Assembly: GCA_964523905.1 (NCBI GenBank)
Contig: CAZFYQ010000006.1
Location: forward strand, 4,287-46,564
DNA length: 42,278 nt
Origin: an uncultured Gammaproteobacteria bacterium
Lineage (GTDB): Bacteria > Patescibacteriota > Microgenomatia > Daviesbacterales > UBA10151
Direction of reading: 5' to 3'
Shown here: piece by piece, positions 13,204 through 42,200 of the stretch
Layout of the letters: each line of letters opens with the position of its first letter
Position numbering within the stretch: position 1 is the first letter of the stretch
The notes under the pieces: generated by a model
What the model was told of the DNA's origin: nothing
The model's input: the letters and a program-made list of their open reading frames with translations, nothing else
The model's database searches: none
Program-made: the position numbers and the translations under genes

Positions 13204-13269
13204 AGGGTACAGGGTATAGGGTACAGGGTATAGTTAAACCTAAACGCTGTACGCTATTTTCTATACGCT
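13204..13269. repeat. heptamer-periodic hairpin element, copy 1
   Basis: (AGGGTAY)x4 AGTTA AACCT AAACGCT GTACGCT ATTTTCT ATACGCT. Confidence 0.85.
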
Positions 13270-13308
13270 CTATAGTGTATATTTAAGGAGCAAGATTGGC
13301 AACTATTA

Positions 13309-14295
13309 ATGATAAAAATCTTACTAAATAGTATTCTAGGCATAGTTTTAATACTGGTTTGGTCACATTTTGTAAATATTGGACAAATTTTCCAAACTCT
13401 GCAAAAAGTTAATCCATTTATTTTACTGATCATTTTTTTCTTCATGTTGCTGGCCTTAAGTTTGCGGGCTCTGAGATTTAAGATTTTTTTGGCAGAAGTT
13501 AAACAAATTCCCTTAATGGATTTAATTTTCTTAAATGGGGTGGCCATGATGCTTAATTTTTTCATTCCAATTCGGGCAGGGGAGATTGCCAAAGGAGTTT
13601 ATTTAAACAATCGTTATCAAATCAATTTAGGCAAAGCCATTGTGTGGACTTTTATTGACCGGTTGGTGGATTTTCTGGGAGTGCTCCTTTTGGGTGCAGT
13701 TTTATTTTTTGTTGTGCCAACCTCACTTAACATCACTTTCATCTACATTATTATAGTGATGCTACTTATTAGCCTGGGAATTACCTACTTGGCAGTATTT
13801 CAACTAAGACTTGCGCGAAAATTGTTTGATTTTCTGAGGGGTCTGTTGATAATAAAGCCTATTAAGATATACTTTGATAAGTTTACGTCATTCATTTTAG
13901 AATCGTTTGCTATTTTGGACCGTCACCCCAAAGATCTACTGTTAATGACCATTATTACCATAGGAGCATATGGAGCAGATGCGGCGATTTGGTATTTTAC
14001 TTTTCTTTCACTGGGATCTCATCAGCAATATCTCAAAATGTATTTGGGTCAGTTACTGTCTGCCTTAACTTATCTGATCCCGGCAGCCCCGGGTTATGTT
14101 GGTTCTGCAGAAGCATCAGGAGCAGTAATTCTAACTGGTGTATTTGGTATTAATGTCAATTTGGCATCTGCGATGATTGTGCTATTCCATATTTCTTCAG
14201 CAATATGGGTTCTAATCTTTGGATTAATCTCTTTGCAGTTTTTAAAACTTAATTTAGGAGAGGTATTTAAAAAAGCGTTCGGAAAGGGTAATTAG
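13309..14295 (+). CDS. lysylphosphatidylglycerol synthase TM / flippase-like membrane protein (UPF0104)
   Basis: LRALRF, NFFIPIRAGE, DRLVD, IPAAPGYVGSAE; multiple TM helices. Confidence 0.85.
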   Translation: MIKILLNSILGIVLILVWSHFVNIGQIFQTLQKVNPFILLIIFFFMLLALSLRALRFKIFLAEVKQIPLMDLIFLNGVAMMLNFFIPIRAGEIAKGVYLNNRYQINLGKAIVWTFIDRLVDFLGVLLLGAVLFFVVPTSLNITFIYIIIVMLLISLGITYLAVFQLRLARKLFDFLRGLLIIKPIKIYFDKFTSFILESFAILDRHPKDLLLMTIITIGAYGADAAIWYFTFLSLGSHQQYLKMYLGQLLSALTYLIPAAPGYVGSAEASGAVILTGVFGINVNLASAMIVLFHISSAIWVLIFGLISLQFLKLNLGEVFKKAFGKGN

Positions 14296-14301
14296 GGAGA
14301 T

Positions 14302-14865
14302 ATGGATAATCAGAATAATCAGGGAAAGAAAAAAGCTGGATATGAGTATTTGCTCGCTTATAAATTAACAGTGCCAATTTATGATTATACAATTGAGTTT
14401 TGCAAAAGGTGGATTGATTATAAATCTAGGACAAAAGACCAGATGGAGCAAGCAGCCAGGTCTGGTATGCAGAATATTTTGGAGGGTAACAAACAGCAAG
14501 GATTGAGTGGATATATTAAGTTGTCTGGAGTTTCAAGAGGCTCGCTGGAAGAGCTTTTAAAAGATTATTTAGCCTTTGCCAGGCAGAATAAACTTCAGAT
14601 TTGGGAAAAAGAAAGGGTAATCAGGGAGATTAGAGAGATAGAGGAAATCTGGAAAATTTTAAGACAGCCTTATCTTCCTGATAACCCCAATTTCCCCAAT
14701 CTCCCGACAGATCAACAACAAACTGTAAATTTGATGATAACCCTGATTAATCAGGCTAATTACTTGATTGATAAGTTGATTGTCTCTCTTAAAGAAAAGC
14801 ATAAAAAAGAAGGTGGCTTGTCGGAGAAATTATATAGGGAAAGAAAAAACTTTCGAGGTTATTAA
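14302..14865 (+). CDS. four helix bundle protein (23S IVP/Avd-like) with suffix domain
   Basis: GYEYLLAY, SRTKDQMEQAARSGMQNILEG, SRGSLEELLKDY, NQANYLID...KEGGLSEKLY. Confidence 0.88.
   Translation: MDNQNNQGKKKAGYEYLLAYKLTVPIYDYTIEFCKRWIDYKSRTKDQMEQAARSGMQNILEGNKQQGLSGYIKLSGVSRGSLEELLKDYLAFARQNKLQIWEKERVIREIREIEEIWKILRQPYLPDNPNFPNLPTDQQQTVNLMITLINQANYLIDKLIVSLKEKHKKEGGLSEKLYRERKNFRGY
14614..14705. repeat. nonamer-periodic imperfect inverted repeat inside the four-helix-bundle gene
   Basis: AGGGTAATC AGGGAGATT AGAGAGATA GAGGAAATC TGGAAAATT, then CCTTATCTT CCTGATAAC CCCAATTTC CCCAATCTC; related nonamers at 14282-14328. Confidence 0.7.
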
Positions 14866-15725
14866 ATACTGGCTAAGTCCAGCTTAACTCCGGGGCCCAT
14901 GGTGGGAGATAAAGTTACTTTTTTATAGCGTGATTTACCTAAAGTAGTTAATAGAACTTTGATATTGGCAGCTAATTCTTCATTGGGCTGATTTAATTTA
15001 CCAACTGCCAAATGAATCACAGCAGCTTTGGATTCTGTTTTATACTCAGTTTTACCAGCTGCAAAACCTGATACAGCTTTTTCTAAGTCTGTAGCAATAG
15101 TACCGTTTTTAGGATTTGGCATTAAACCGCGCGGACCCAGGATTTTAGCAGCTTTAGCCAATTTTGGCATCCAAGTTGGATGGGTAATAACTAAATCAAA
15201 ATCTAATTTGCCTTTGCTAATTTCATCAATTGTAGCCTCAGTACCAGTGGTGGCGCCCTCAGCCTCACCGCCAAAAACTACAATTCGCAGTTTTTTACCG
15301 GAGGCAAATGGTAAGGAAACCAGGCCGCGCATACCAGTAGAAATGGTATTAATATGAGTTTCTAAGGTGCCGGTAAATTTAGTCATAGACAGCTTTTTTA
15401 CTAAATCTAAGGCTTCATTTAAAGGATAAGCCTTAGTGCGATCTAAGTCCTCACTAATTTCTTGGTATTTTTTGGATCGTGGTTTGGCTTTACCAGGTTT
15501 TTGTGATTTCTTTTTAGGTTCCTCAGCTTTTTCGGCACTTTCCTGAGTAGATTGCTTCGCTTCACTCGCAATGACGGGAGTGGGTTCAGTCATGCCCAGT
15601 TCTTCTTTAAGCTGAGCGACTAAGGAATCCTCGCCTTTTTGAAGAGGTTTTTTCACCATTGGAGCTTTCTTAATTTTCTCCTCAGTTGCTGAATCATCAA
15701 TTGTGGCAATTTTTGTTTTTCCCAT
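14862..15725 (-). CDS. rplA: 50S ribosomal protein L1 with N-terminal extension
   Basis: MRGLVSLP, ILGPRGLMPNPKNGT, SPTMGPG. Confidence 0.96.
   Translation of the reverse strand: MGKTKIATIDDSATEEKIKKAPMVKKPLQKGEDSLVAQLKEELGMTEPTPVIASEAKQSTQESAEKAEEPKKKSQKPGKAKPRSKKYQEISEDLDRTKAYPLNEALDLVKKLSMTKFTGTLETHINTISTGMRGLVSLPFASGKKLRIVVFGGEAEGATTGTEATIDEISKGKLDFDLVITHPTWMPKLAKAAKILGPRGLMPNPKNGTIATDLEKAVSGFAAGKTEYKTESKAAVIHLAVGKLNQPNEELAANIKVLLTTLGKSRYKKVTLSPTMGPGVKLDLASI
15548..15576. repeat. half REP-like element in frame in the rplA extension
   Basis: Minus strand GTCATTGCGAGTGAAGCGAAGCAATCT (encodes VIASEAKQS). Confidence 0.65.
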
Positions 15726-15737
15726 TTTGTTTCTTGG

Positions 15738-16163
15738 TTATTGTATCTTCACGCCCATAGAGCGTGCTGTGCCTTCAACAATTTTCATTGCTGCTTCCAC
15801 ATTTTTAGTATTTAAATCCGGTAATTTAGCTTCAGCAATTGACCTGACCTGTGCACCAGTTAATGTACCAACTGGTTCTTTTAGGGCACTTCCAGAGCCT
15901 TTTTCTAAACTGAGGGCTTTTTTAATCATTTCGGCTACCGGCGGTTCTTTGGTAATAAAAGAAAAAGTGCGGTCCTCATATACAGTAATCACCACTGGTA
16001 ATACATTGCCTTTTTTAGGCTCAGTTCTTTCATTAAAGGCTTTAACAAATTCCATGATTGGCAGTCCATGTTGTCCCAGGGCTGGACCAACCGGAGGAGC
16101 AGCAGTAGCTTGGCCTGCTGGAATGTTAAGTTTTATAAAGGTTTTTATTTTCTTTACTGCCAT
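15738..16163 (-). CDS. rplK: 50S ribosomal protein L11
   Basis: [19 protein letters not shown]...GTARSMG. Confidence 0.98.
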
Positions 16164-16174
16164 ATTTGTCTTTC

Positions 16175-16232
16175 TGTCATTCTGAACGAAGTGAAGAATA
16201 TAATTATACCCTTCGCTACGCTCAGGGTGACA
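16175..16232. repeat. REP-like palindromic element between nusG and rplK
   Basis: TGTCATTCTGAACGAAGTGAAGAATATAATTATACCCTTCGCTACGCTCAGGGTGACA, nested inverted repeats. Confidence 0.8.
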
Positions 16233-16233
16233 A

Positions 16234-17034
16234 TTAAATCTTCTGTACTTGTAAAAAGTCCAGCTCTACAGGTGTCTCCCTTCCGAAAATAGAAACCAGC
16301 ACTTTAACCTTGCCGCGTTCTTTATCAACATTGTCAATTTTACCAATAAAGTCGGAAAATGGACCGTCCACAATTTTGACAGTGTCGTTAACTTCAAAGA
16401 CCTGTTTGTAAACCGGAGCTTCAGTTTGAGCAAAGCTAACAATGGTGGCTACTTCTGCCTCAGAAATAGGGGTGGGTTTGTTACCAATCCCCACAAAGCC
16501 AGTTACTCCTTGAGTGGTTCGAACAGCCAGCCAGGAAACATCATCTAAAATTAGTTTAACTAAAATATATCCGGGGAAGATTTTTTCTTTAACAGTCACT
16601 TTTTTACCGGATTTGATCTCGATTTTATCTTGAGTGGGGACTAAGACTTCTAAAATTTTAGCTTGCAAATGTTCGGATTCCACTCTTTGTTTTAAGGTCA
16701 CAGCCACTTTGTTTTCATGTCCGGAATAAGTATGAACTACATACCAACGAGCATTGGGATTGTCATTTTTTGGAGCAGGAACTGGAGTAACAGGTTGCTC
16801 AGCAGCTTCTGCTTGTTCATTGGGAACGATTTCCTCAGCCGGAGTTTCACCAACAATAGTTTCATTACCAGAATCGTTTGATGTAGTTTCTGGATCATCT
16901 AGGATTTCTGTAGTCTCATCACTAGTTGTTGGAGGAGTAGTCAGTTCAGCTGGTTCATCTGATGTAGGTTCTGTAACAGGTTCAGTTGTTTCTACCACTT
17001 CTTCTATATTTTTTGTTTGATCGTTAATGTCCAT
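16234..17034 (-). CDS. nusG: transcription factor NusG with ~90-aa acidic N-terminal extension
   Basis: [25 protein letters not shown]...[13 protein letters not shown]. Confidence 0.97.
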
Positions 17035-17218
17035 AATGTTGTAATAAAAAAGCTGATAACAGAGTTAGTAAATAATCCAACCCTCCTAAAAAAAGCCCTA
17101 CTGCTACAGCCACAATAATTACCAAAACAGTATATCTGATGGTCTGTTCACGGCTGGGCCAGGCTACCTTAAACAGCTCCTCATAAACTTCTTTAAAAAA
17201 ACTTAATACATTGGGCAT
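17024..17218 (-). CDS. secE: preprotein translocase subunit SecE
   Basis: ELFKVAWPSR plus one TM helix; directly upstream of nusG. Confidence 0.93.
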   Translation of the reverse strand: MPNVLSFFKEVYEELFKVAWPSREQTIRYTVLVIIVAVAVGLFLGGLDYLLTLLSAFLLQHYGH

Positions 17219-17222
17219 AGCT

Positions 17223-17248
17223 AAAAAAAATCCTCCATAATTTGGAGG
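17223..17248 (-). terminator. terminator-like hairpin in the secE leader
   Basis: CCTCCA aatta TGGAGG A T8, ending 4 nt before the secE ATG. Confidence 0.55.
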
Positions 17249-17286
17249 TCTTGTGTCAAGTGTAGCAAATTTAAGTGTATAATGCA

Positions 17287-17655
17287 ATGGTGAAAAAGCA
17301 CCTGGCGATTTTTAAAGGAAGCGGAGGAGAGTTAATACTAAATGGAATAAAAACTATCGAAGCCCGTTTTTCCAAAAGTAAAATAGCTCCATTTGGGGTA
17401 GTTTCCCCAGGAGATTTAGTTTATATAAAGCCTGCGGGTAAAGATATAATTGGCCAGTTTAGGGTACAAAAAGTATTCTCGTTTGAAGGACTGGAGATGG
17501 GAGATATTAGCCAAATTAATGATATTTATGGTGTTGAAATAGCTAAAAATGCGAAGGTGGCCACTTTAATTTTCATTGAAAAAACAGTGCGCTTTTTAAC
17601 CTCACCTTTAAAAGTATCTAAAAAAGATTTGCGCGGTTGGGCAGTGCTGGATTAG
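17287..17655 (+). CDS. ASCH/PUA-like domain protein
   Basis: ILNGIKTIEARFS...PGDLVYIK...DLRGW. Confidence 0.75.
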   Translation: MVKKHLAIFKGSGGELILNGIKTIEARFSKSKIAPFGVVSPGDLVYIKPAGKDIIGQFRVQKVFSFEGLEMGDISQINDIYGVEIAKNAKVATLIFIEKTVRFLTSPLKVSKKDLRGWAVLD

Positions 17656-20120: not shown

Positions 20121-20191
20121 TCTAAAATATTTTTACTTTGTCCACAAGAGGGAATTTGATTCTAGGATGATTACCTGTTAGAATCCTCGGC

Positions 20192-22321: not shown

Positions 22322-22362
22322 ATTTTTGCATTACTAAGCCCCATAGTGTATAATATACATAT

Positions 22363-25319: not shown

Positions 25320-25349
25320 GGTGTATTATAATTGTATAATAATAATAGC

Positions 25350-27455: not shown

Positions 27456-27526
27456 CAGGGGCGGAATGAATCGGACATTCGTCACATCTTTTGGAGAGAT
27501 GGGTCCTACCACTGAACGACGCCCCT
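27456..27526 (-). tRNA. tRNA-Trp(CCA)
   Basis: Acceptor AGGGGCG/CGCCCCT, anticodon arm CATCT-CTCCAAA-AGATG, T arm GAATG-TCCGATT-CATTC; no encoded CCA. Confidence 0.92.
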
Positions 27527-28576: not shown

Positions 28577-28960
28577 ATGTCACTGGAATATGGTGGGGGT
28601 AAGAAAAAGATTCTGGTGGTAGATGATGAGCAGTTGATTAGAGAATTCTATCAGGAGCTGCTAACTGGGGAAGGTTACGTGGTAATTGCTGCCAAAGATG
28701 GTAAAGAAGGGGTGGCTTTGGCTTTAGAGCAAAAGCCGGATTTGATTATTTTAGATATTTTGATGCCGGATATGGATGGATTTAGTGTTTTTAATCAGAT
28801 TAAGGCAGCTGGTCTAACATCTCCGGTCATATTTCTTACCAATGCCGGGGAGACTGAAAATATTTTACAAGCCAAAGAAGGAGCAGCTGCTTCTTTTTTA
28901 ATTAAAGCTAATATTAAACCAGAAGAATTACTGGCCGAAGTTAAAAGAGTTTTATCCTGA
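28577..28960 (+). CDS. single-domain response regulator (receiver)
   Basis: ILVVDDE, PDLIILDILMPDMDG, FLT, K. Confidence 0.93.
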   Translation: MSLEYGGGKKKILVVDDEQLIREFYQELLTGEGYVVIAAKDGKEGVALALEQKPDLIILDILMPDMDGFSVFNQIKAAGLTSPVIFLTNAGETENILQAKEGAAASFLIKANIKPEELLAEVKRVLS

Positions 28961-29031
28961 GCCGACGATGGGAATTGAACCCATGGCCTCATTCTTACCA
29001 AGAATGCGTTCTGCCACTGAACTACGTCGGC
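28960..29031 (-). tRNA. tRNA-Thr(GGT)
   Basis: Acceptor GCCGACG/CGTCGGC, anticodon arm CATTC-TTGGTAA-GAATG, T arm ATGGG-TTCAATT-CCCAT. Confidence 0.95.
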
Positions 29032-29601: not shown

Positions 29602-29673
29602 AGCCTCCTGGCAGAAATCGAACTGCCGTCGACTGTTTACAAAACAGCTGCTTTACCATTAAGCTAAGGAGGC
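29602..29673 (-). tRNA. tRNA-Thr(TGT)
   Basis: Acceptor GCCTCCT/AGGAGGC, anticodon arm GCTGT-TTTGTAA-ACAGT, T arm GGCAG-TTCGATTT-CTGCC; upstream TGaTATAAT. Confidence 0.88.
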
Positions 29674-30005: not shown

Positions 30006-30088
30006 ATCTAACAATATCACTAGTCGAAGTGACTTGTCAAGGGGGCAAAACTTGACAAAAAAAGATGTGTATGCTAATGTGTATGTGT

Positions 30089-30913: not shown

Positions 30914-30951
30914 GGTTGAGTTTTCAGCTAACAAATGTTATATTACCATAC

Positions 30952-31179
30952 ATGTTAGCATGCGCAAGATGTGGTAAAGGTAAAAATGTATTGAGCTTTT
31001 CCAGACACAAGAAAGGATCTTCCGGATCCGGTGGTGTCTGGGCACTCCGTGCTCCAATTCATAAAAGAACCCAAAAACCAAACTTACACGCTTTTAAAGG
31101 AGATAAATACTGTACTCAGTGTCTTCGAATTGTTAAACCAAAACATCAAGTAGCTGAAGTTCCGGTTGTCTCTACATAG
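30952..31179 (+). CDS. rpmB: 50S ribosomal protein L28
   Basis: CARCGK...KRTQKPNL...CTQCLR. Confidence 0.85.
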   Translation: MLACARCGKGKNVLSFSRHKKGSSGSGGVWALRAPIHKRTQKPNLHAFKGDKYCTQCLRIVKPKHQVAEVPVVST

Positions 31180-31181
31180 AT

Positions 31182-33077: not shown

Positions 33078-33105
33078 AAACGGATAATATCATATTGTTT
33101 AATTA

Positions 33106-34257
33106 ATGCCCAAATTAGGTCAAACAGGGTTAATTCAATATATAGTGTTGTTTGTTTTAGCTGTCGGATTAGTCGGCGGCCTCTACTTAGTCCAGCATCC
33201 CACCATTCTTCGTCCTCATGCTGAAGAATTAACTAATATTGGAGTTGGGTCTTCAAATCCACAAAGTTGTAATGCTCGTTTAGCCAGTCTTTCTGTGTCA
33301 AATCCTTGTGATGAAATAGCTAATGGATTTAGAACAATTCAGTATACTTGTAATAATAATCCAGGTACCTTTACAGATGGTAGAGGAGCTTGTATGAGTA
33401 TTCAAGATTTAATGGCATTAGCTCAGCATGTTTGTGAGGCACAGTGTTCTGTTAATGCTCCTACGCCAACTCCAAGTCAACCTACTCCAACTTCGGTTCC
33501 AGGTAGTAATGTTGTGACCTGTGAAGTACACACCTCAAGTATTTCCGGCAGCAATGCTCCTGTTACTGTAACTTTCTATTATGGTGCCAGCTGGAGTGTT
33601 CAGACGAATGATTATGTGACCGAGGTGCAGTGGGACTTTAATGGTGATGGTCAGTGGGATACATCTTATGATGTTAGTCAACAGCATCCAGCACCTCATA
33701 CTTATAATACTGCTGGAACTTATGATGTGAAGATGCACTTAAGAACTCATAATGGTTTGGAATCCGGTATTTGTACACAGGCTATCTTGGTTTTATCAAA
33801 TTCCGTTCCAACTCCCACACCCTCAACTAATAATAATTGGACTTTCTGTGCTCAGGAATTCCAAAGCTGTAACTTTAGTGGGACTGCTACTGTCCGCTAT
33901 GGTACCAGTGACAGTAACTATGTCTACAGAACTCTAAGCGGGCCGGTTGACTGTGGTAACGGTACTTTTGGGGATCCGGCTTTTGGGCAACTAAAGCATT
34001 GTGATTATCAGTTAGGAGGCGGTCAATATGCACCTACCCCGACTCCGACCCCTCCGTCAGCAGGTAATAACTGGATTTATTGTGGACAGGAATTTAGCGG
34101 AGCTTGTACTTTCCCCGGGACCAGACAGGTACGTTATGGTGCTAATGGAGTATTTACCAGTCCCAGAATATTCACTAACAGTGTTGAGTGTGGTAATGGT
34201 ACCTTTGGAGACCCGCTACCAGGTACTCTTAAGCACTGTGAGTATTTAGGCCAATAA
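33106..34257 (+). CDS. membrane-anchored Cys-rich surface protein with a PKD domain and two repeated C-terminal modules
   Basis: N-terminal TM helix, PT linkers, APVTVTF...WDFNGDG...HTY.TAGTY, 2x W..C.QE...C.F.GT..VRYG...CGNGTFGDP..G.LKHC. Confidence 0.8.
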   Translation: MPKLGQTGLIQYIVLFVLAVGLVGGLYLVQHPTILRPHAEELTNIGVGSSNPQSCNARLASLSVSNPCDEIANGFRTIQYTCNNNPGTFTDGRGACMSIQDLMALAQHVCEAQCSVNAPTPTPSQPTPTSVPGSNVVTCEVHTSSISGSNAPVTVTFYYGASWSVQTNDYVTEVQWDFNGDGQWDTSYDVSQQHPAPHTYNTAGTYDVKMHLRTHNGLESGICTQAILVLSNSVPTPTPSTNNNWTFCAQEFQSCNFSGTATVRYGTSDSNYVYRTLSGPVDCGNGTFGDPAFGQLKHCDYQLGGGQYAPTPTPTPPSAGNNWIYCGQEFSGACTFPGTRQVRYGANGVFTSPRIFTNSVECGNGTFGDPLPGTLKHCEYLGQ

Positions 34258-34258
34258 G

Positions 34259-34534
34259 CTAACGTTTAACTGGGTCAGTTTCTTTCAATTGTTTAAGTCT
34301 CCACATGAATACCCGGCCTTTGGATTTAGCAGAATAATAGCCTTTGGTGTAGTTTAAGGCTTCTTCCAGCAAATGACGAGGGGTTTGCTTGGCCAGTTTA
34401 ATATAGAGAGAATAATGTTTGGTGTCATCTAGACTTTCAGCCAAATAGACCCCATAGGTTTGGAATTCATAGGCAATATTTTTGGGACGGTCTTTGAATT
34501 TGACCTCTGCGATAGCCTTGGCAATTGATTTCAT
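34259..34534 (-). CDS. small basic hypothetical protein
   Basis: EFQTYG..LAE.L.D.KH.SLYIKLAK...FMW; ATGA-coupled to the upstream gene. Confidence 0.7.
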   Translation of the reverse strand: MKSIAKAIAEVKFKDRPKNIAYEFQTYGVYLAESLDDTKHYSLYIKLAKQTPRHLLEEALNYTKGYYSAKSKGRVFMWRLKQLKETDPVKR

Positions 34535-36573
34535 TTAGTATTAGCTGAAGCAGTGGCTTGTTTTAAAGAGGCAATGGCCTCCAGATAATTGGGTTTTAAT
34601 TCAATGGCTTTTTGAAAAGCAGCGATCGCCTCAGGCTTTTTGTTCTGTGACTGCAGGATTAGGGCTTTGTTATAGTAAAGCTTAGGATCAGTGGGAGCTA
34701 AAATGATGGCTTGGTCCAAAGCTTGTAAAGTTTTATCAATATAGCCGGGATCTTCTGTAGCTAGCTCAAAATAGGTTCTGATGGCTGTCCTGTAAAAAGA
34801 AACATTTTTGGGACTATTTTGTAAAACGATCTTGGTTTGAATAACTGCTTCATCTCTTAAAGCAGCGGATAAAGTAGCATCGGTTTCGGCCAAGGCGCTT
34901 GAGGCAGCTGCTGCAGAATAGGCCAGCTCTGAGCGGTAAAACGGCTCCCCTGGGTTTAAATCTAGGGCAGAACTAAATAAGTTGTAGGCCCGGCCGGGAT
35001 TACCGGCATCTGAGGCTTTGTTTCCGGAGGAAAAAATAGTATCTGCCAACCATAGTTTATAAACTCCAAATAACAAATAACAAATAACAAAAATAATCAG
35101 GCCCAGAGCGATTTTGGTATATAAGCTTCGACGATAGATGAAACTAGTGAATAGTGAATAGTGAATAGTGAATAGTTTTTTTGGCAGCTTCAGTGGCTTA
35201 ATGGAATCAGTGAATACAAAAACAAAAGCAGGGAAAAGATAAAAAAAGATGGCCAGAATTACCACAGAGAACAAAAAGAAGTTATAAATCAGATATAAAA
35301 CGTAAGCCCCTAGCAAAGCAGCGGTCATCAGCGTCTGCTCAGAGTTGGTGGTTTTTTTGCTAGTTACCAGAAAACGGATACACCAATAAACAAAGCAGAT
35401 AATCATTATCATATAAGTGCCAAAGCCAACAATTCCGGTCGTTGCCAGATAGTTTAAATATTCATTGTGGGCTTTGTTATATAAAAAATCCCATTCAGAG
35501 GTTAAATTATGAGCAGCCGGGCGGAATTGATAATAAGAATAGGCAAAAGTTTCTACACCTGATCCTAAGATTGGATAGTGGCGGAAAATGTCTATTGCCC
35601 CTTGCCAGACAATTAAGCGGATTTGTCCGGATTCTGTACCACCATTTTCCAACTGGGAACCTCCAGAAGCCAACTCAATAGCCGGTCTGCTTGGCGCAGC
35701 AAATTTAGATACCAGTCGAAAACTGGTTAAAGCCGAACCAAACAGGATATTGACGAGAATAAACGAAAGTAAAATACCACTAATTCTCGTCATTCTGAGC
35801 GCAGCGAAGAATCTCTCACGAATGTGAGTAGAATCTGCAATAAAATAGAAGAAAATAAATACTGCCAGGCCGCCGATTAATCCCAGTGTTGGCCCCCGGG
35901 AATAGGTAAAAGTAAAGCCTAAGTAAAGGGTAGTTAGTAGTAGGTAGTAAGTAGTTTGGGAGAGACGGCTTTTCGCAGTCATTAAAAAATACAAAGCCGG
36001 AAAAATTAGCATTCCTAGGTAGGCTGCTAACCAGTTGGGTTGGCCTAAGCTGGCAAACACCCGGGCCTGGACATCTTGAATCCAGCAGGAGTCATTAAAT
36101 TCTCCGCGTAAAATTACACAAGAAAAAGATGTGCCAAAATGTTCAAAAATAGCCCAGATGGCAATTATAAATCCGGAAATTAAACCAAATTTTAAAGTTG
36201 TTAAAACCTGTTCTTTGGTCATATTAGACACAAAAGCCCAGTAAAGTAATAAATAAGATACAAGAGACAAAAGCCCGCCATTAGATCTTGAGTAATAGCC
36301 CCAGATGGAGGTGTGATGGTCTATAGAAAAAATAGTAGACAAAATATTGGCGCCTAAAAATAGCAATAGCGGAATATCAAGCGGAGTACGATTTACGATA
36401 AACGATTTACGATAAACCATTTTAAGGATCCAGGTTCCGACTATAACGATGGTTAAACCATACGTTAAAATCATCTTATTGTATTCAAACAACTCATAAT
36501 TTAAAGAAGTCCAAAAAAGCGGGGTAATTAAAAAGAGCAGGTAAAAGCTGTAGCGGATGATTCTGTCTAACAT
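34531..36573 (-). CDS. O-antigen ligase-like polymerase with C-terminal TPRs
   Basis: SLGQPNWLA, TYSRG, IRLIVW, PILGSG, KAHNEYL, TPR tail; start at MLDRIIRY. Confidence 0.88.
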   Translation of the reverse strand: MLDRIIRYSFYLLFLITPLFWTSLNYELFEYNKMILTYGLTIVIVGTWILKMVYRKSFIVNRTPLDIPLLLFLGANILSTIFSIDHHTSIWGYYSRSNGGLLSLVSYLLLYWAFVSNMTKEQVLTTLKFGLISGFIIAIWAIFEHFGTSFSCVILRGEFNDSCWIQDVQARVFASLGQPNWLAAYLGMLIFPALYFLMTAKSRLSQTTYYLLLTTLYLGFTFTYSRGPTLGLIGGLAVFIFFYFIADSTHIRERFFAALRMTRISGILLSFILVNILFGSALTSFRLVSKFAAPSRPAIELASGGSQLENGGTESGQIRLIVWQGAIDIFRHYPILGSGVETFAYSYYQFRPAAHNLTSEWDFLYNKAHNEYLNYLATTGIVGFGTYMIMIICFVYWCIRFLVTSKKTTNSEQTLMTAALLGAYVLYLIYNFFLFSVVILAIFFYLFPAFVFVFTDSIKPLKLPKKLFTIHYSLFTSFIYRRSLYTKIALGLIIFVICYLLFGVYKLWLADTIFSSGNKASDAGNPGRAYNLFSSALDLNPGEPFYRSELAYSAAAASSALAETDATLSAALRDEAVIQTKIVLQNSPKNVSFYRTAIRTYFELATEDPGYIDKTLQALDQAIILAPTDPKLYYNKALILQSQNKKPEAIAAFQKAIELKPNYLEAIASLKQATASANTK
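35146..35173. repeat. in-frame heptamer tandem repeat (AGTGAAT)x4
   Basis: Four perfect copies; further heptamer tracts at 35067-35087, 35930-35957 and 36388-36415. Confidence 0.8.
35789..35836. repeat. partial REP-like element in frame
   Basis: GTCATTCTGAGCGCAGCGAAGAATCT plus a CTCAC-gaat-GTGAG hairpin. Confidence 0.7.
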
Positions 36574-36575
36574 AA

Positions 36576-36651
36576 AGCGTATAGCGTATAGATAATAGCG
36601 TATAGTCAAAGCAAAAAACAACTGTACGCTAAACGCTATTCACTGTACCCT
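36576..36651. repeat. heptamer-periodic hairpin element, copy 2
   Basis: AGCGTAT AGCGTAT AGATAAT AGCGTAT, loop, GTACGCT AAACGCT ATTCACT GTACCCT. Confidence 0.82.
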
Positions 36652-36677
36652 TGGTTTATGTTACACTCGCAAACACT

Positions 36678-37742
36678 ATGTTTGGAAAGCTGTGGTCTTA
36701 CTTATCTCATGATATTGGAATAGATTTAGGAACTGTAAATACGCTGGTGTTGGTTAAAGGAAAAGGAATTGTCATTAGAGAGCCCACAGTGGTGGCACTT
36801 CATAAAAAAACCCGTCAGATTTTAGCAATTGGATCTGAGGCTAAAAGAATGTTAGGTAGGACCCCGGCTGCAATTGAGGCTGTTAGGCCACTTAGGAATG
36901 GGGTTATATCAGACTTTGATACCACAGAGGCTATGCTTCGCTATTTTATCCATAAAGTTCATGAATCTCCGGGAAAAAGCATGTGGTCTTTGCCTAGAAT
37001 CCCTAAACCTCGGGTAGTGGTGGGAATTCCCTCTGGTGTTACTGAGGTAGAAAGAAGGGCAGTGCAGGATGCTTGTTTATCAGCCGGGGCCAGACAGGCC
37101 TATTTAATAGAAGAACCAATGGCAGCGGCAATTGGTTCCAAACTGCCAATTGAAGATCCGGAAGGTGTAATGGTAGTGGATATTGGTGGAGGAACCACGG
37201 AAATTGCCGTGATATCTTTGGGTGGGATGGTTGTTAACCGCTCACTCCGAGTCGCCGGAGATGAGTTGGATGAGGCCATTATTTCTTACATGCGAACCCG
37301 CTACGGGATGTTGATTGGGGAAAGAACTGCTGAAGACATTAAAATAGAAATCGGTTCGGCCTTTCCCATTGATAAGCTAGACAATGCAGCTACTGTGGTT
37401 CGCGGCCGGGATCTAGCTTCAGGACTACCCAAATCTATTAAAGTTTCTGCCTCAGAAGTTCGTGAGGCTTTAACTCCAGTGGTATCTCAAATTATTGGTG
37501 CCATTGGTGAGGTACTGGAAGAAACTCCACCAGAACTGTTAACTGATATTGTAGAAAGAGGCATATTTTTAACCGGAGGTGGGGCTTTAATTAGGGGTTT
37601 GGATAAAAAAATTGCTGAAGAAAGTAAATTGCCGGTTTGGGTATCAGATGATCCATTGACTACTGTGGTTAGGGGCTGTGGTGAAGTATTGGAAAATCTT
37701 GACTTGTTATCCAAAGTGCGAGTAACCGGTGGTCTTCGCTAA
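36678..37742 (+). CDS. mreB: rod shape-determining protein MreB
   Basis: IGIDLGT, RPLRNGVISDF, EEPMAAAIG, DIGGGTTE, LTGGGA. Confidence 0.98.
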   Translation: MFGKLWSYLSHDIGIDLGTVNTLVLVKGKGIVIREPTVVALHKKTRQILAIGSEAKRMLGRTPAAIEAVRPLRNGVISDFDTTEAMLRYFIHKVHESPGKSMWSLPRIPKPRVVVGIPSGVTEVERRAVQDACLSAGARQAYLIEEPMAAAIGSKLPIEDPEGVMVVDIGGGTTEIAVISLGGMVVNRSLRVAGDELDEAIISYMRTRYGMLIGERTAEDIKIEIGSAFPIDKLDNAATVVRGRDLASGLPKSIKVSASEVREALTPVVSQIIGAIGEVLEETPPELLTDIVERGIFLTGGGALIRGLDKKIAEESKLPVWVSDDPLTTVVRGCGEVLENLDLLSKVRVTGGLR

Positions 37743-37744
37743 AG

Positions 37745-38371
37745 ATGATAAAAGCAATTCTGTTTGATATTGATGGAACCATTTTAGATTCCTACGAATT
37801 TATCTATGCTGCATTTCAGTATACTTTAGAAAAACACCAAAAAGTGGTTGCAGAGGATTTAATAATTCAAGCTTCAGGAAAACCTCTGGTGGAGTTTTAT
37901 CAATTTATTTTGCCGGAAGATGATGCAGAGTTACTGGCTCAAACCCATCGCGAGTGGCAGGAAGATAAGCATCATTTAGCCAAACCATTTTACAGTGTAA
38001 TTGAAACTTTTAAACAGTTAAAAAAGAAAAAAATAAAACTGGCAGGAGTTAGTAGTAGGACCAGTACTAGTTTAATAAAATCTTTAAAAACCCATGATGT
38101 TTACAAGTATTTTGATCTGGTTTTGGGATTTGATGATGTGGAAAATCCCAAACCTCATCCAGAACAACTTTTAAAAGCCATGAAAGTTTTAAAAGTTAAA
38201 AAAACTGAAACTTTAATGGTAGGTGATACGGAAAAAGATATTCAGGCAGGACAAGCTGCCGGAATAAAAACAGCAGGAGTGGCTTATGGTTGGATGGGTG
38301 AAAATATTAAAGACCTTAATCCAGATTATGTAATTACTGATTTAGAAGAGTTATTGAAAGTGGTAAAATAG
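37745..38371 (+). CDS. HAD family phosphatase (PpaX/Gph-like)
   Basis: FDIDGT, KPHPE, MVGD...D. Confidence 0.9.
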   Translation: MIKAILFDIDGTILDSYEFIYAAFQYTLEKHQKVVAEDLIIQASGKPLVEFYQFILPEDDAELLAQTHREWQEDKHHLAKPFYSVIETFKQLKKKKIKLAGVSSRTSTSLIKSLKTHDVYKYFDLVLGFDDVENPKPHPEQLLKAMKVLKVKKTETLMVGDTEKDIQAGQAAGIKTAGVAYGWMGENIKDLNPDYVITDLEELLKVVK

Positions 38372-38375
38372 CCTT

Positions 38376-39461
38376 ATGCAAATACCGTTCTACGATCCGC
38401 AGAAAAGTTATGAGGATAATTATAATCAGGGGCCGTTTGGGGCATTTGCGGATGGTCAGGATCTAAGAACCGAGCAGGAACCAAAGTATGAATTTTTAGG
38501 TTTCAAAATTAATTCTCCTTTTGGAATTGCTGCGGGTCCTTTGGTAAATTCTAAATTCTGCAAAGCCGCTTTTGAAAAGGGTTTTGATGTAATTGTTTAT
38601 AAAACCCGCAGATCCGTGGCTTTTCCCTCAAATCCCTGGCCCAATGTTTTATCAGTAGAAGTTGACGGGGATTTAACCTTAGAAAAAGCCAAACAGCCTT
38701 TAACCGGCACCACTAATTTTGACAAAGACCCCAAAGATTTAAGTATTACTAATTCTTTTGGTAATCCTTCTCCGGAGCCGCCCTCGGTTTGGGTAGAGGA
38801 TATGAAAAAAGCTGTTTTAGATGCCGGTCCTGGTCAGCTGCTGATTGGCTCTGTGGTTGGGACTATTCAAGAAGGTTTTTCTCAGAATGAATATTATGAT
38901 GATTTTGCTAAGGCTGCTGAGATGGCTGCCTCAACCGGAGTAAAAATAATAGAAGTTAACTTGTCTTGCCCGAATGTGGCCTCAGAAGGAGTGGTTTGTT
39001 ACAACAAAGAGGCTGTTTTAAAAATCTGTCAAAAAGTCAAACAAAAAATCGGCCAAATCCCAATGTTAATTAAACTGGGCTATTTTTCTCTGGAACAACA
39101 ACCACTTTTGGAAGAAATCATCAAAAATGTATTGCCTTTAATTGCCGGAGTAGCAGTGATTAACACCATCCCCGCACCAGTGGTTGACGAAGAAGGCGGA
39201 CAAGCTTTGCCAGGCGCAGGCCGTTTAAATGCCGGTATTTGCGGAGCAGCTATAAAATGGGCCGGATTAGACATGGTTAAAAGATTAGCTGCTTTAAGAG
39301 ATCAGTGGAATGAGCAGTTTGCCATTATCGGAGTTGGTGGAGTAATGACTGCTGAGGATTTTCAGCAATACCAAGATGCTGGCGCAGATATCGTCCAATC
39401 AGCCACAGGTGCAATGTGGAATCCCTATTTGGCTAAGGAAGTTAAGGCTGCCAATCAGTAG
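38376..39461 (+). CDS. pyrD: dihydroorotate dehydrogenase-like flavoprotein
   Basis: PFGIAAG, KT, EVNLSCPN, INT, IIGVGG; adjacent to pyrEF. Confidence 0.75.
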   Translation: MQIPFYDPQKSYEDNYNQGPFGAFADGQDLRTEQEPKYEFLGFKINSPFGIAAGPLVNSKFCKAAFEKGFDVIVYKTRRSVAFPSNPWPNVLSVEVDGDLTLEKAKQPLTGTTNFDKDPKDLSITNSFGNPSPEPPSVWVEDMKKAVLDAGPGQLLIGSVVGTIQEGFSQNEYYDDFAKAAEMAASTGVKIIEVNLSCPNVASEGVVCYNKEAVLKICQKVKQKIGQIPMLIKLGYFSLEQQPLLEEIIKNVLPLIAGVAVINTIPAPVVDEEGGQALPGAGRLNAGICGAAIKWAGLDMVKRLAALRDQWNEQFAIIGVGGVMTAEDFQQYQDAGADIVQSATGAMWNPYLAKEVKAANQ

Positions 39462-40071
39462 GGTCTGATACCCAATCTAAAATTGTCTGTAAGTCTTCTT
39501 CATTAATATACTTCATTTCCTGAGCTTGTTTTACCACTTCCTGGAAATTAGTCAAAGAAACCATTTCTAGGTGATTACTCAAAAAATTATCTTCAGCTTG
39601 CTTAAATCCATAAGTGATTATTGCAAAAACAGTGGTAATTTCTCCGCCAGCTTGCCTGATCGCATTAACACTATTAATTGCGCTTTCCCCGGTAGAAATT
39701 AAATCTTCAATGACAATCACTTTTTGTCCTTTTTTGATAATTCCCTCCATCAAGTTTTCCTTGCCATGGTCTTTGGCTTTGCCTCTGACATAAACCATTG
39801 GTAGATTTAATTTATCAGCAATCCAGGCTGCATGAGGAATGCCTGCTGTGGCAGTGCCTGCTACCACATCAAATGAAACTCCAGATTGTTTGATAGCATC
39901 AATATAGAAATCTCTGATTAAACTTCTCTGATCTGGATAAGCCATCAGCACCCGGCAATCCGTATAAACCGGAGATAAAATTCCGGAGGCATATTTAAAT
40001 GGTTTTTTAGGGCTTAAAGTTACGGCATTTAATTCTAGTAATAATTTAGCTACGGTTTCTGATGTATTCAT
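39442..40071 (-). CDS. pyrE: orotate phosphoribosyltransferase
   Basis: ASGILSPVYTDCR, YVRGKAKDHG, VIEDLISTGES. Confidence 0.95.
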   Translation of the reverse strand: MNTSETVAKLLLELNAVTLSPKKPFKYASGILSPVYTDCRVLMAYPDQRSLIRDFYIDAIKQSGVSFDVVAGTATAGIPHAAWIADKLNLPMVYVRGKAKDHGKENLMEGIIKKGQKVIVIEDLISTGESAINSVNAIRQAGGEITTVFAIITYGFKQAEDNFLSNHLEMVSLTNFQEVVKQAQEMKYINEEDLQTILDWVSDPTDWQP

Positions 40072-40826
40072 GATTTTAAAGCCTCCTGTATTTGACTTTG
40101 TAAATCCTGAGTAGCTTTGCGAGGATCCGGTGCAAAGATAATGCTGCGGGAAGCAGAAATAATCAGTCCCTGCTTTTTGCTGTTTAAAGCATTTTTAACA
40201 ATGCCTTCTAAATTTCCACCCTGAGTGCCAATTCCGGGAACTAAAATCGGTATATCACCAATGATTTCCCTGACTTTGGTTAAATCCTGCGGATAAGTGC
40301 CACCAACAACTACGGCTATATTACCATTAGTATTCCAACCCGTCATATGCTCTGCAACAACCTGATAAAGTGGAATTCCATCAATTCCCAAATCCTGAAA
40401 TTCTCCGGCCCCGGGATTGGAAGTTTTTACCAATACAATAATTCCTTTATCAGCCCGGTTTAAAAACGGTTTTAAACTCTCTTCTCCCAAATACGGATTA
40501 ACTGTGACTGCATCAACTCCTAAAGTGTCAAAAATGGCTTTGACATAGGCTTCATTGGTGTTGCCAATATCGCCTCTTTTGGCATCTAAAATGATCGGCA
40601 AATCCGGGTGATTTTCTTTGATGTATTTAATAATTTGGGCTAATTTTTCAAGACCTAAGGGACCCTCAGCTTCATAAAAAGCCGCATTGGGTTTATAAGC
40701 GCAGACCAAATCAAAAGTAGCATCAACAATGGATCTATTCTCATCAAAATCAAACTGGTCCAAACCAACACAAATAAATTTCCCCTCGTTCCATTTAACT
40801 GTTAATTTATCTAGGAAAGAATTCAT
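40068..40826 (-). CDS. pyrF: orotidine-5'-phosphate decarboxylase
   Basis: CVGLD, YKPN, ILDAKRGDIGNT, KTSNPG, LVPGIGTQGG, SRSI. Confidence 0.96.
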   Translation of the reverse strand: MNSFLDKLTVKWNEGKFICVGLDQFDFDENRSIVDATFDLVCAYKPNAAFYEAEGPLGLEKLAQIIKYIKENHPDLPIILDAKRGDIGNTNEAYVKAIFDTLGVDAVTVNPYLGEESLKPFLNRADKGIIVLVKTSNPGAGEFQDLGIDGIPLYQVVAEHMTGWNTNGNIAVVVGGTYPQDLTKVREIIGDIPILVPGIGTQGGNLEGIVKNALNSKKQGLIISASRSIIFAPDPRKATQDLQSQIQEALKS

Positions 40827-40897
40827 CGCTCAATTGAATATACATTTTAACAATCAGGTTTGCAACTGTAACTTTTTTAAGTTATATTGGGGGCTCC

Positions 40898-41686
40898 ATG
40901 ACTAAGGTAATTCCTAACCTCAAAATCCTTTCCTTTTTAATTTTTCTAAGTTTATTTATAACGGCTTTGGATAATTTTAAGCTACTGGTTATTCCAGAAA
41001 AATTTATCTCTTACATAACTAATCCAATTTCTTTTGGGCTTTATCAAACTAAAGTTAATGTCTCACGTCAATTTGGTTTTATCTATTCACTGCGGCAAGC
41101 AGCTCAGGAAAACAGCGCTTTAAAAGAGCAAATCGGTAAGTTGCTTTCCGAAAATGCCAGGCTTCGCAAAAATCTGTCAGAAACCCAGGCTTTAGTGTCT
41201 CAAGGTACTCATTTAGATCCGGCTACTTATAGTTTAATTCCAGCCCGGCCAATTGGAGTGGATCGCTATTTAAAAATAGATAAAGGTTCAACTGACGGAA
41301 TTAAAATGGGTGAGGCAGTAATTTATAATGACAACTTTGTGGGTAAAATTGTGGCTGTTTCTGCCAAAGCCTCATCAGTGCAACTTTTAACCGATCCGGA
41401 TTCTAAAGTGTCGGCTTTTTCCCAAGGCTTGGAAGGTAAAAGCAAAGGAGTGCTGCTTGGTCAATTTGGCTCTGAGATTTTAATGGATAAAATTTTGCAT
41501 GAGGAAAAAATTAGTGTGGGTGATTTGGTTTATTCAGAAGGTATTGAAAGCTTTCTCCCACGGGGTTTAATTTTAGGTAAAGTCACGAAGGTTTTGGAGA
41601 GACAAAATGAAGTCTTTAAGCAAGCCAAAGTTAAGCCAGTGTTTGATATTGCAGATTTGGAGCTAGTGTTTGTAATACAAGAGTAA
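40898..41686 (+). CDS. mreC: rod shape-determining protein MreC
   Basis: TM helix, coiled coil ENARLR, IDKGSTDGIK.G, VGK, LLTD, PRGLILG. Confidence 0.93.
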   Translation: MTKVIPNLKILSFLIFLSLFITALDNFKLLVIPEKFISYITNPISFGLYQTKVNVSRQFGFIYSLRQAAQENSALKEQIGKLLSENARLRKNLSETQALVSQGTHLDPATYSLIPARPIGVDRYLKIDKGSTDGIKMGEAVIYNDNFVGKIVAVSAKASSVQLLTDPDSKVSAFSQGLEGKSKGVLLGQFGSEILMDKILHEEKISVGDLVYSEGIESFLPRGLILGKVTKVLERQNEVFKQAKVKPVFDIADLELVFVIQE

Positions 41687-41688
41687 CT

Positions 41689-42135
41689 ATGAAAACTATT
41701 ATATTTATACTAATAATTTTATCTTTTATTCAGACTACTATTTTACCTATCAACCTGGTACTAATTGTGTTACTGTCCCGCGCTTTAGTCAGACCGGATA
41801 AATCTAATCTTTACCTGGCTTTTGGATTTGGACTATTTCTGTCATTGATTTCTTTGGAGCCTTTGGGGTTTAAAAGTCTCACTTTTCTAATTTTAGTGCA
41901 GCTTACCGAAAATTTGTCCCGCTCCCGTTTTTCAGCAAATCAATTTTTGATTATTCCGATTGTCATAGTTTTTTCAACATTGGATTTAGCAGCCACTGCC
42001 ATATTTTCTCAGCAGTCAATTATTATCTGGCCTCAAGTGGTAATTGAAGGGGTACTGTCTTTGCCGATATTTTTTATCGTTAGGATTTGGGAAGAACGAT
42101 TTATTATTAAAAAAGGAATTAAATTAAGGGTATAG
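41689..42135 (+). CDS. mreD: MreD-like membrane protein
   Basis: Hydrophobic 148-aa ORF directly after mreC. Confidence 0.7.
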   Translation: MKTIIFILIILSFIQTTILPINLVLIVLLSRALVRPDKSNLYLAFGFGLFLSLISLEPLGFKSLTFLILVQLTENLSRSRFSANQFLIIPIVIVFSTLDLAATAIFSQQSIIIWPQVVIEGVLSLPIFFIVRIWEERFIIKKGIKLRV

Positions 42136-42200
42136 GGTTCAGGGTATAGGGTATAGTTAATCACAAATAACTAAACGCTGTACGCTATTTTCTATACGCT
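42127..42200. repeat. heptamer-periodic hairpin element, copy 3
   Basis: AGGGTAT AGGGTTC AGGGTAT AGGGTAT AGTTA...TAACT AAACGCT GTACGCT ATTTTCT ATACGCT; last 30 nt identical to 13240-13269. Confidence 0.85.

Follow-up and report, generated by a model that had tools for sequence, protein, structure and literature searches.

A stretch of 42,278 nucleotides, referred to here as the window, from an uncultured bacterium of the Patescibacteriota (GTDB: Microgenomatia, Daviesbacterales, UBA10151; assembly GCA_964523905.1, contig CAZFYQ010000006.1, positions 4,287–46,564) contains three small elements, copies 1 to 3, in each of which four tandem heptamers face four inverted heptamers across a short loop (4+4 elements, Table 1). 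Copies 1–3 are gene-less copies of an inverted heptamer-array module that brackets genes of the four-helix-bundle IVP family (PF05635, TIGR02436), that is, they have the period-7 inverted-array structure of IVP loci minus the gene: no IVP open reading frame (ORF) lies inside their loops of 6–16 nt, and the paralogous locus C4:20195–20667 of the same genome holds one. Beyond this we propose, with a confidence that stops a little short of even, that the elements are gene-less arms of IVP cassettes which were copied between sites and whose arms are read unit by unit. In what follows, G000 denotes the genome of this window, G002 to G058 and similar labels denote other genera, and C1 to C9 are contigs.

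Architecture of the Elements and Their Relatives in the Genome

The three elements share a common plan of four AGSGTAY units with an AG, a loop, and a CT with four RTACSCT units, in agreement with an original prediction made from the letters of the window alone, and a degenerate unit is frequent within an arm (e.g., AGATAAT, ATTTTCT or ATTCACT). Period-7 arrays with 3.9–4.7 copies each were called at all three by Tandem Repeats Finder (TRF). With at most one mismatch, AGSGTAYAGSGTAY has 10 matches in the window, every one of them within copies 1–3, compared with a mean of 0.10 matches in shuffled windows (10 reached in 0/100 shuffles). The arm that had been predicted to recur in copies 1 and 3 is the right one, identical at 30/30 positions, while the left arms agree at 26/30 and the whole elements at 61/66. 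The elements are located between protein genes and not in a 23S or 16S rRNA helix; an Rfam search of the window returned three tRNAs only and no family at copies 1–3, and terminator scans found no terminator-like site at any of them. In contigs from four DNA runs of one soil-metagenome study, copy 2 is bridged in X1 and X2 and copy 3 in X1, and these bridging contigs show no indel and no form that skips the element. No RNA run was listed as containing window positions 34500–42278.

The genome is a metagenome assembly of 1.085 Mb in 21 contigs, rated 100% complete, with 35–41% G+C per contig, and relatives of the same family have genomes of 0.5–1.5 Mb. A scan for four phased units yielded 26 arms, 22 of which have the AGSGTAY flavour and lie at 16 loci, namely 10 full 4+4 elements and 6 single arms (Table 1). 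The loops of the full elements span 6–46 nt, the AG/loop/CT junction is conserved, and the arms of C4:19928, C4:20593 and C4:21731 are identical. These likenesses in part show a spread of the elements, which probably took place by copying between sites, and the identical 30-nt arm supports templating from another locus. No target-site duplication was found at the flanks of the 10 full elements or in the comparison of filled and empty mreD/PBP2 sites, nor was any gene-bearing copy with a transposase, the only gene-bearing copy coding for an IVP.

Gene-less inverted heptamer pairs of other flavours are also present (C5:5860–5959 and C9:17336–17403; e.g., seven ATCTCAA units with four TTTGAGT units); few were found by TRF, which misses degenerate arms.

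Period-7 Inverted Arrays Around IVP Genes

Seven PF05635 genes were found in the genome, and one of them, C4:20227–20601, belongs to the cognate gene-bearing copy of the module (C4:20195–20667). A left arm of the flavour of the window elements ends 2 nt before its ATG, and at its 3′ end the last codons and the stop extend into another left arm that leads on, through a loop, to a right arm, so that the cassette has the layout arm, IVP gene, arm, loop, arm. The arm at C4:20195 and the arms of the hairpin at C4:20593 are identical to those of C4:19928 and C4:21731 and have the flavour of copies 1–3, and the encoded protein passes NF008911 and TIGR02436. This gene has a left arm on one side and a full hairpin with the same flavour on the other, and together with the bracketing of IVP genes in general (see below) this supports the suggestion of the original prediction that copies 1–3 belong, without a gene, to an IVP-linked family. 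The remaining IVP genes of the genome have short flanking repeats of other flavours. The commonest heptamer flavour of the genome, AACAGGC (18 arrays), also flanks an IVP gene, at C6:56608.

The cassette at C4:20195 has on one side a promoter-like box that most of the relatives read have kept and on the other the ATG of a PrgI-family gene, and IVP genes are located 5′ of the PrgI-family gene in three other genera as well. Most relatives read also have a conserved region of about 100 nt (…TTTTTCAC..GTAT…) upstream of the PrgI-family gene (L191–L203); in this genome the IVP cassette parts that region (C4:19996–20194) from the PrgI-family gene.

The original prediction had pointed to a different IVP-like gene as the partner of the elements, the one near copy 1 at 14302–14865. 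Its family assignment stands, as it matches PF05635 and TIGR02436, but its role as partner is not supported: it belongs to another subfamily that bears a C-terminal TIGR04258 suffix domain, and because no arrays bracket it, it is not counted in the system. It lies directly 3′ of an LPG-synthase-TM gene.

In a family sample of 61 genomes, one per genus, IVP genes are present in 46/61 genomes and tandem AGSGTWY pairs in 43/61 genera, compared with 3 matches in total for a reversed-pattern control. Several AGSGTWY matches lie directly beside or on both sides of IVP matches, for example at G002:C39, G058:C2, G041:C8, G027:C16 and G007:C27. At 29 family loci, the flanks of the IVP genes have a period-7 autocorrelation of 0.43 as against 0.265 in control windows, with other periods at background, and the upstream flank shares 5.9 six-mers with the reverse-complemented downstream flank, as against 1.96 in mismatched pairs. 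The flanks of IVP pairs with at least 60% identity have 13.2 six-mers in common and those of less related pairs about 6. The support given by these family statistics is overstated, since related genomes are not independent.

A scan across phyla, with one genome per species and an alignment of one IVP subfamily as the query, which biases the sample to that subfamily, returned at least 603 pattern-matched stretches and at least 599 confirmed relatives; the best 80 of 599 were kept, and 77 were usable. Represented among the best 80 are Patescibacteria, Bacteroidota, Clostridia, Acidobacteriota, Planctomycetota, Gammaproteobacteria, a cyanobacterium, Kiritimatiellae and others; the best outside relatives of the IVP gene of this genome are from Microgenomates and Gottesmanbacteria assemblies, which, with the small genome, suggests a Patescibacteria-like organism. 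At the 77 loci the period-7 autocorrelation is 0.40 upstream and 0.43 downstream, compared with 0.254 in controls and with 0.26–0.31 for periods 5, 6, 8, 9 and 10, and a flank exceeds the 95th percentile of the controls at 59/77 loci. At least three seven-mers are common to the upstream and the reverse-complemented downstream flank at 58/75 loci, as against 10% of mismatched pairs. The flavours are diverse, including GTGGTTA, AGGCAAC, GGACAGT, GTGACAA and AGCGTCT, with AGCGTAT in Capnocytophaga. Period-7 inverted arrays are therefore, by the flanks within the family and across the phyla, a general hallmark of IVP genes, and the original prediction's statement on short repeats around these genes holds generally.

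Paired Arms or Arrays of a Unit

On either strand, copies 1–3 are predicted to form long, imperfectly paired hairpins (−16 to −28 kcal/mol, z −2.8 to −5.7), and for the whole set of 10 full elements the fold energies are −16 to −29 kcal/mol (z −2.8 to −7.3). This stability favours an explanation at the RNA level, on the model of the rRNA intervening sequence: the stem would be cut by RNase III or another RNase, taking the insert out of the host transcript and leaving a very short leader or none, or it would join an upstream stop and a downstream start for re-initiation. An RNase III gene is present in the genome; rRNA intervening sequences with an IVP ORF are described as having terminal inverted repeats that RNase III cuts in mid-stem (PMC4990558), and IVP ORFs have been reported in rRNA insertions of candidate phyla radiation bacteria (PMC11270868). 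Promoter-like sites just outside copy 1 and C7:2630 would make the hairpin the whole 5′ untranslated region there, and both the frequent leaderless starts and the seven full elements that end close before an ATG, as detailed below, fit the same explanation.

We nevertheless consider an RNA element of this kind unlikely. In an alignment of 14 elements, the share of cells that pair is 74.9% in register and 22–44% when the partner is slid, and when the 3′ arms are shuffled among copies 77.3% pair, 484/500 shuffles being as high as the real arms. No compensatory change was found in the 14 elements and covariation is below that of shuffles, in a test of low power, as several of the 14 sequences are near-identical. 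The regularly spaced mismatches noted in the original prediction recur at the unit centres: columns 3/74, 10/67, 17/60 and 24/53 are unpaired in 8/11, 12/14, 7/14 and 6/14 elements, and one mismatch is preserved in 13/14. In orthologues, the unit centre swaps between G and C on one arm and the other arm does not follow. Pairing no better than shuffled, a conserved mismatch and uncoupled centres together point to a conserved unit rather than conserved pairing, and in these alignments the arms resemble arrays in which a unit is recognised more than a stem under selection; the idea that the periodic duplex itself is the selected feature is not supported. Against an RNA element there is, in addition, no consistent advantage in fold stability of the mRNA-sense strand, a sign by which RNA-level selection might be recognised; a cut within the stem would give a leader of 10–20 nt and not a leaderless end; and the same arrays also occur singly and within ORFs.

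Arrays of a G-rich unit could alternatively act as a quadruplex switch, in which four AGGGTAY units provide the four G3 tracts of a quadruplex that modulates expression in DNA or RNA. Copies 1 and 3 do have four GGG tracts with 4-nt spacers, and the GGGAATC arrays of Xanthomonas, mostly of four units, were studied as quadruplex formers (PMC4692102). There is no such tract in copy 2 or in most paralogues, which are made of AGCGTAT, and G and C interchange freely at the unit centre between orthologues, so that we give this explanation hardly any credence.

Turnover of Sites and Conservation Upstream of mreB

The site of copy 3, between mreD and the gene of a PBP2-like protein, is empty in 13/13 relatives, where the genes have an ATGA overlap or a spacer of up to 15 nt. 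Copy 3 begins where relatives have the last codons of mreD, which in one relative (AGAGTATAA) are near a unit. At the site of copy 1, 8/13 relatives have no array and 5/13 have one: a 4+4 element of another flavour in G033, four direct units in two and partial or other arrays in two. The empty sites have TACACT about 8 nt before the minus-strand ATG, a leaderless geometry, so that copy 1 separates the −10 box from the ATG in a gene whose start is leaderless elsewhere; in the window itself, copy 1 lies between a minus-strand −10-like TACACT (13274–13269) and the ATG at 13198, and the promoter-like site 13302–13274 agrees with this placement. At the site of C4:21731, no array is found in 10/13 relatives and an array in 3/13, with a 4+4 element in G006. 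Judged by these comparisons, the sites turn over by gain and loss, in support of this side of the original prediction.

At the site of copy 2, among 29 other genera, 7 have an element of AGSGTAY flavour between the start of the Wzy-like gene and the mreB promoter, 2 have arrays of other flavours, 9 have none and 11 have a different upstream context. The copy-2-site elements of G006, G041 and G027 are identical at 67–70/73 positions. For G006 and G027, the one pair relied on for mreB third codon positions (the comparisons with G041 are ungapped and apparently shifted), the elements agree at 70/73 and the third positions only at 50%, which argues for strong sequence constraint on the mreB-upstream copy and marks it as old. 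The sequence TGTTAAACTCC N3-4 ATG is kept with small variations 5′ of mreB (30 genera read; 36655–36680 in the window). The degenerate copy-2 unit ATTCACT supplies TTCACT 17 nt upstream of the −10-like TACACT of mreB, and this unit, AGACCCT in other genera, would thus stand at the expected −35 of the mreB promoter, a candidate that the promoter scan did not list.

Gain and loss of this kind would also be produced by a miniature inverted-repeat element that is purely selfish, serves no function in the host and does not involve IVPs, moved in trans, for example by a Y1 transposase of the REP-associated tyrosine transposase (RAYT) type, or by recombination, in which case docking at genes is what selection leaves in a compact genome. 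Besides filled and empty sites, near-identical paralogues and short same-strand spacers (see below), this explanation can draw on the combination of imperfect hairpins and missing target-site duplications, as in single-strand Y1 transposition, on four RAYT-like Y1 (IS200/IS605-type) transposase genes in the genome (PF01797; C5:6260–7087, C3:89238–89906, C3:69944–70633 and C5:51194–51988), and on the fact that 8/15 family genomes without an IVP match still carry arrays of AGSGTAY flavour, 3 of them at least five. We nonetheless consider it improbable, though together with the RNA-level explanation it is the foremost alternative. No heptamer arrays were found beside the four PF01797 genes, at least one of which is flanked by its own, different inverted repeats; the mreB-upstream copy is much more conserved than synonymous sites; the AGSGTWY unit is kept in 43/61 genera; and the tight bracketing of IVP genes across phyla is left unexplained.

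Placement at Start Codons in a Compact Genome

The original prediction placed the elements 2–6 nt from start codons, and the measured gaps are 5 nt for copy 1 (13199–13203), 2 nt for copy 2 (36574–36575) and 6 nt for copy 3 (42201–42206). In the genome as a whole, 7/10 full elements end 0–8 nt before an ATG with no Shine–Dalgarno (SD) sequence; the three that do not are found, one each, between convergent stops, at 50 nt from a start and within an ORF. The docked genes elsewhere in the genome include those of an OmpR-type regulator and dnaN, and the rule that the elements precede envelope genes, suggested by the three in the window, is not supported. A single arm, C2:69710, lies 4 nt before an ATG that is not in frame and is not counted as docked, its array being in the part of an ORF that encodes a signal peptide.

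The docking is real, and a special placement is not needed to account for most of it. In our own ORF map, spacers between same-strand genes have a median of 9 nt and 54% are of 15 nt or less, and the 0–8 nt left beside the elements are in the same size range as ordinary spacers. Leaderless starts are common in this genome, given that TAnnnT starts exactly at −12 in 72/279 unambiguous ATG starts against a background of about 10, and given the conserved motif upstream of mreB; an SD-like 4-mer precedes only 38 of the same 279 starts. The suggestion of the original prediction that cleavage may expose a leaderless start gains context from these figures. Because same-strand spacers are so short and leaderless starts common, docking at start codons is largely expected.

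Heptamer Arrays Elsewhere in the Genome

Among the tandem repeats of the genome, period 7 forms the commonest class (130/579 arrays, and 83/129 of the arrays with at least 3 copies). Of these 83 arrays, 31 lie at gene ends or between genes, though just 7.4% of the genome is non-coding in our ORF map, and 52 lie within ordinary ORFs, far from IVP genes. In an RluA-like and an aminopeptidase-N-like gene, about four heptamers occupy the same codons in five or six genera (L167–L175) with a genus-specific flavour, examples of in-ORF flavours being perfect (AATTTTC)4 and (AAATGTC)4 (sites in G000, C1:131143–131245 and C1:116423–116452). In the RluA-like gene, the length does not change between orthologues, and in this genome the right arm stands in place of 33 native coding nucleotides.

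Such arrays could be local microsatellites that arise through in-place slippage in a genome without mismatch repair, the inverted pairs being a coincidence of two arrays. The prevalence of period 7 is in line with this, as are the absence of any match to the MutS_V domain in a genome rated complete, the orthologous in-ORF arrays that keep place and length and change flavour, and the native mreD end of one relative (AGAGTATAA), which is already unit-like. An origin by slippage in place is nevertheless very unlikely for the elements of the window, as it would have to produce an identical 30-nt arm 29 kb apart and ten 4+4 inverted pairs of one flavour with a conserved AG/loop/CT junction, and as the right arm in the RluA-like gene replaces native sequence and the flavour is common to 43/61 genera.

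Some arrays are translated within signal peptides (C2:69710–69744, C6:53492–53580 and L036), and RTACCCT arrays encode peptides of the type LYP.PYTLYPVYA in this genome and in G041.

A Possible Mode of Spread and Action

In the mode of spread that we envisage, gene-less arms of IVP cassettes, copied between sites, would settle in the gaps between a stop and the next start in operons, between the −10 box or transcript start and the ATG of leaderless genes, and between convergent stops. They would abut start codons because few non-coding bases are available and spacers have a median of 9 nt. Such insertions may be tolerated for reasons that lie in the unit: the final T of a unit and the following AG form TAG, and since 7 is not a multiple of 3, the period spreads these stops over different reading frames, while a TAnnnT hexamer is part of each RTACSCT unit. 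The upstream ORF can therefore be terminated by an insertion, which can also offer a −10-like box near the next ATG. Copy 3 is an instance of both, since it supplies the mreD stop, as had been predicted, by a TAG at the junction of its units 1 and 2, and sets TACGCT at −12 to −7 relative to the PBP2 ATG. As to action, the roughly four copies of the 7-nt unit in each arm would be read singly by a sequence-specific factor, for which the cognate IVP oligomer is the best candidate; the arrays of the genome mostly have 3.4–5 units, and for each of the two IVP homologues with a solved structure the entry holds five chains. Resident copies may join promoter regions and then be held by strong selection, as upstream of mreB.

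A number of observations weigh against this proposal. To our knowledge, no IVP is known as a reader of DNA or RNA sequence or as a recombinase. Over the 61 genomes, the number of arrays correlates weakly with the number of IVP genes (rho 0.36), and arrays persist in the genomes without an IVP match mentioned above. The position of most arrays within ORFs far from IVP genes and the change of flavour between genera fit slippage or turnover without any reader, and the low power of the covariation test limits the case for units over stems. The −10-like box stands at the ideal −12 for copy 3 only, and elsewhere at −8 to −15 or is absent. A point in favour, that among 105 IVP loci stops in all three frames face inward more often than outward (50 versus 29 loci upstream, 47 versus 30 downstream), is a modest asymmetry among loci that are not independent. 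Finally, the gene starts derive from our own ORF heuristics in a metagenome assembly.

Relation to Known Repeats and Significance

Heptameric tandem repeats are over-represented in many bacteria and have been noted for decades. IVP (four-helix-bundle) genes are very common and structures have been solved, and we know of no role for them outside the Avd protein of diversity-generating retroelements (DGRs). Avd is a four-helix-bundle protein of the same superfamily as the IVPs. A DGR reading was rejected, since no reverse transcriptase (PF00078) was found in this genome, and the IVP of C4:20227 hits the Avd model NF033474 only weakly, at 25 bits, the cut-off being 80.

The closest known description, together with the rRNA intervening sequences, appears to be that of the GGGAATC pairs of Xanthomonas. 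These arrays consist of tandem 7-nt units, mostly four, with 70–75 convergent pairs on opposite strands per genome (Rehm et al., 2015, PMC4692102). The G-rich heptamers of Xanthomonas and Nostoc are 89–93% intergenic, dispersed, near gene ends, variable between related species and of unknown function (PMC4692102). In that article the terms "S23" and "intervening" are absent and IVP genes are not mentioned. The elements of the window likewise have period 7, about four units and convergent close pairs; they differ from those of Xanthomonas and Nostoc in the unit, the phylum, the tiny genome, the many arrays in ORFs and the tie to IVP genes, and a quadruplex reading as for Xanthomonas could not cover the AGCGTAT copies.

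In the 23S rRNA intervening sequences of Coxiella and Leptospira that hold an IVP/S23p ORF, terminal inverted repeats form a stem, and short intervening sequences without an ORF exist; they are sporadic and regarded as selfish and horizontally moved (PMC4990558). Stem-forming terminal inverted repeats, an IVP ORF or none, and RNase III in the host are common to them and to the present elements, which in contrast lie between or inside protein genes and have heptamer arrays with regular mismatches as arms. According to that source, the rRNA sequences have a near-perfect stem of 28 bp and are excised; for the elements described here, excision would be a prediction.

TAACTGA direct repeats in Beggiatoaceae, cyanobacteria and Bacteroidetes are intergenic, have 2–6 units and contain stop codons in the unit; in the largest class, 1 nt separates the array from the start codon that follows, and a role in translation was proposed (MacGregor, 2015, PMC4679880). 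In contrast to the arrays of the window, they are direct, in one orientation to the gene and with one inverted case only, and the accessible part of the article describes no link to IVPs.

Small, gene-less hairpins dispersed beside genes, with filled and empty sites and in some cases promoter-like boxes, are familiar as MITEs (miniature inverted-repeat transposable elements), as repetitive extragenic palindromic (REP) sequences with their mosaic elements (BIMEs), and as Correia-type elements. MITEs resemble the present elements in terminal inverted repeats, many similar copies and presence or absence at orthologous sites; here, in contrast, there is no target-site duplication, the arms are internally repetitive and the gene-bearing relative codes for an IVP and not a transposase. 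As for REP and BIME, the RAYT-like genes of this genome lack flanking heptamer arrays.

The analysis ties heptamer repeats to IVP genes, through bracketing across phyla and through copies of the same arms that stand without a gene at gene starts in a tiny genome; the copy upstream of mreB is conserved far beyond synonymous sites. It also shows how small elements coexist with leaderless starts where spacer DNA is all but lacking. No paper connecting IVP genes with heptamer repeats came up in a search of the literature (database notes and supplements lay outside the search). Inverted heptamer pairs as such are already known in Xanthomonas, and the IVP link is the part worth following up. It may explain a long-puzzling class of bacterial 7-base repeats, and it opens the direct question of whether an IVP oligomer reads its own heptamer. 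A broader and more doubtful extension is that IVPs and heptamer arrays form one widespread system, in which each subfamily would recognise its own 7-nt unit with one subunit per unit, and in which the over-represented heptamers of bacteria (those of cyanobacteria, GGGAATC of Xanthomonas, TAACTGA) would be arms, solo arms and gene-less hairpins of cassettes, serving at gene starts as scattered operators or sites of processing. If true, this would provide a function for the large IVP family and an origin for the heptamer repeat class.

Neighbouring Genes and Further Observations

Table 1. Features of the window and heptamer elements of AGSGTAY flavour in the genome.
Feature	Position	Strand	Description
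Dockerin-domain protein gene	12314..13198	minus	ATG 5 nt from copy 1; domain match
Copy 1	13204..13269	none	4+4 heptamer inverted array; AGGGTAY x4, 6-nt loop, RTACGCT-type x4
Units of copy 1			AGGGTAC AGGGTAT AGGGTAC AGGGTAT AG, loop, CT AAACGCT GTACGCT ATTTTCT ATACGCT
Promoter-like site TTGCCA-17-TACACT	13274..13302	minus	consensus match only; transcript would begin at outer edge of copy 1
Four-helix-bundle protein gene	14302..14865	plus	PF05635/TIGR02436; C-terminal TIGR04258 suffix domain
tRNA genes (three)	27456-27526, 28960-29031, 29603-29673	minus	Rfam
Wzy_C/TPR gene	34531..36573	minus	ATG 2 nt from copy 2; Wzy_C domain match
Copy 2	36576..36651	none	4+4 inverted array with AGCGTAT flavour; in the gap that parts mreB from the divergent Wzy_C-like gene
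Units of copy 2			AGCGTAT AGCGTAT AGATAAT AGCGTAT AG, loop, CT GTACGCT AAACGCT ATTCACT GTACCCT
mreB	36678..37742	plus	-10-like TACACT at 36662-36667
mreD	41689..42135	plus	stop TAG 42133-42135 formed at unit 1/unit 2 junction of copy 3
Copy 3	42127..42200	none	4+4 inverted array; between mreD and PBP2-like gene
Units of copy 3			AGGGTAT AGGGTTC AGGGTAT AGGGTAT AG, loop, CT AAACGCT GTACGCT ATTTTCT ATACGCT
PBP2-like gene, 5′ end	42207..42278	plus	window ends inside gene
Full 4+4 elements of the genome	C1:131143, C4:3844, C4:19928, C4:20593, C4:21731, C4:27770, copies 1-3, C7:2630
Single arms of the genome	C1:116423, C2:69710, C4:11032, C4:20195, C6:53492, C8:28669

The Wzy_C/TPR gene contains four period-7 arrays (35067–35091, 35145–35176, 35930–35955 and 36387–36422), two of them perfect, which are possible sites of phase variation because a change by one unit shifts the frame; no differences in unit number were found at them among the four metagenome contig sets. 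In the relatives, MreD ends in K-L-(R/K)-(V/I)-stop, encoded by native codons such as AGAGTATAA. The PBP2-like gene was read across a scaffold gap of 100 N just past the window (G000:C6:46565–46664), on either side of which about 50 nt are duplicated, and an X1 contig of 3496 nt extends beyond the window end.

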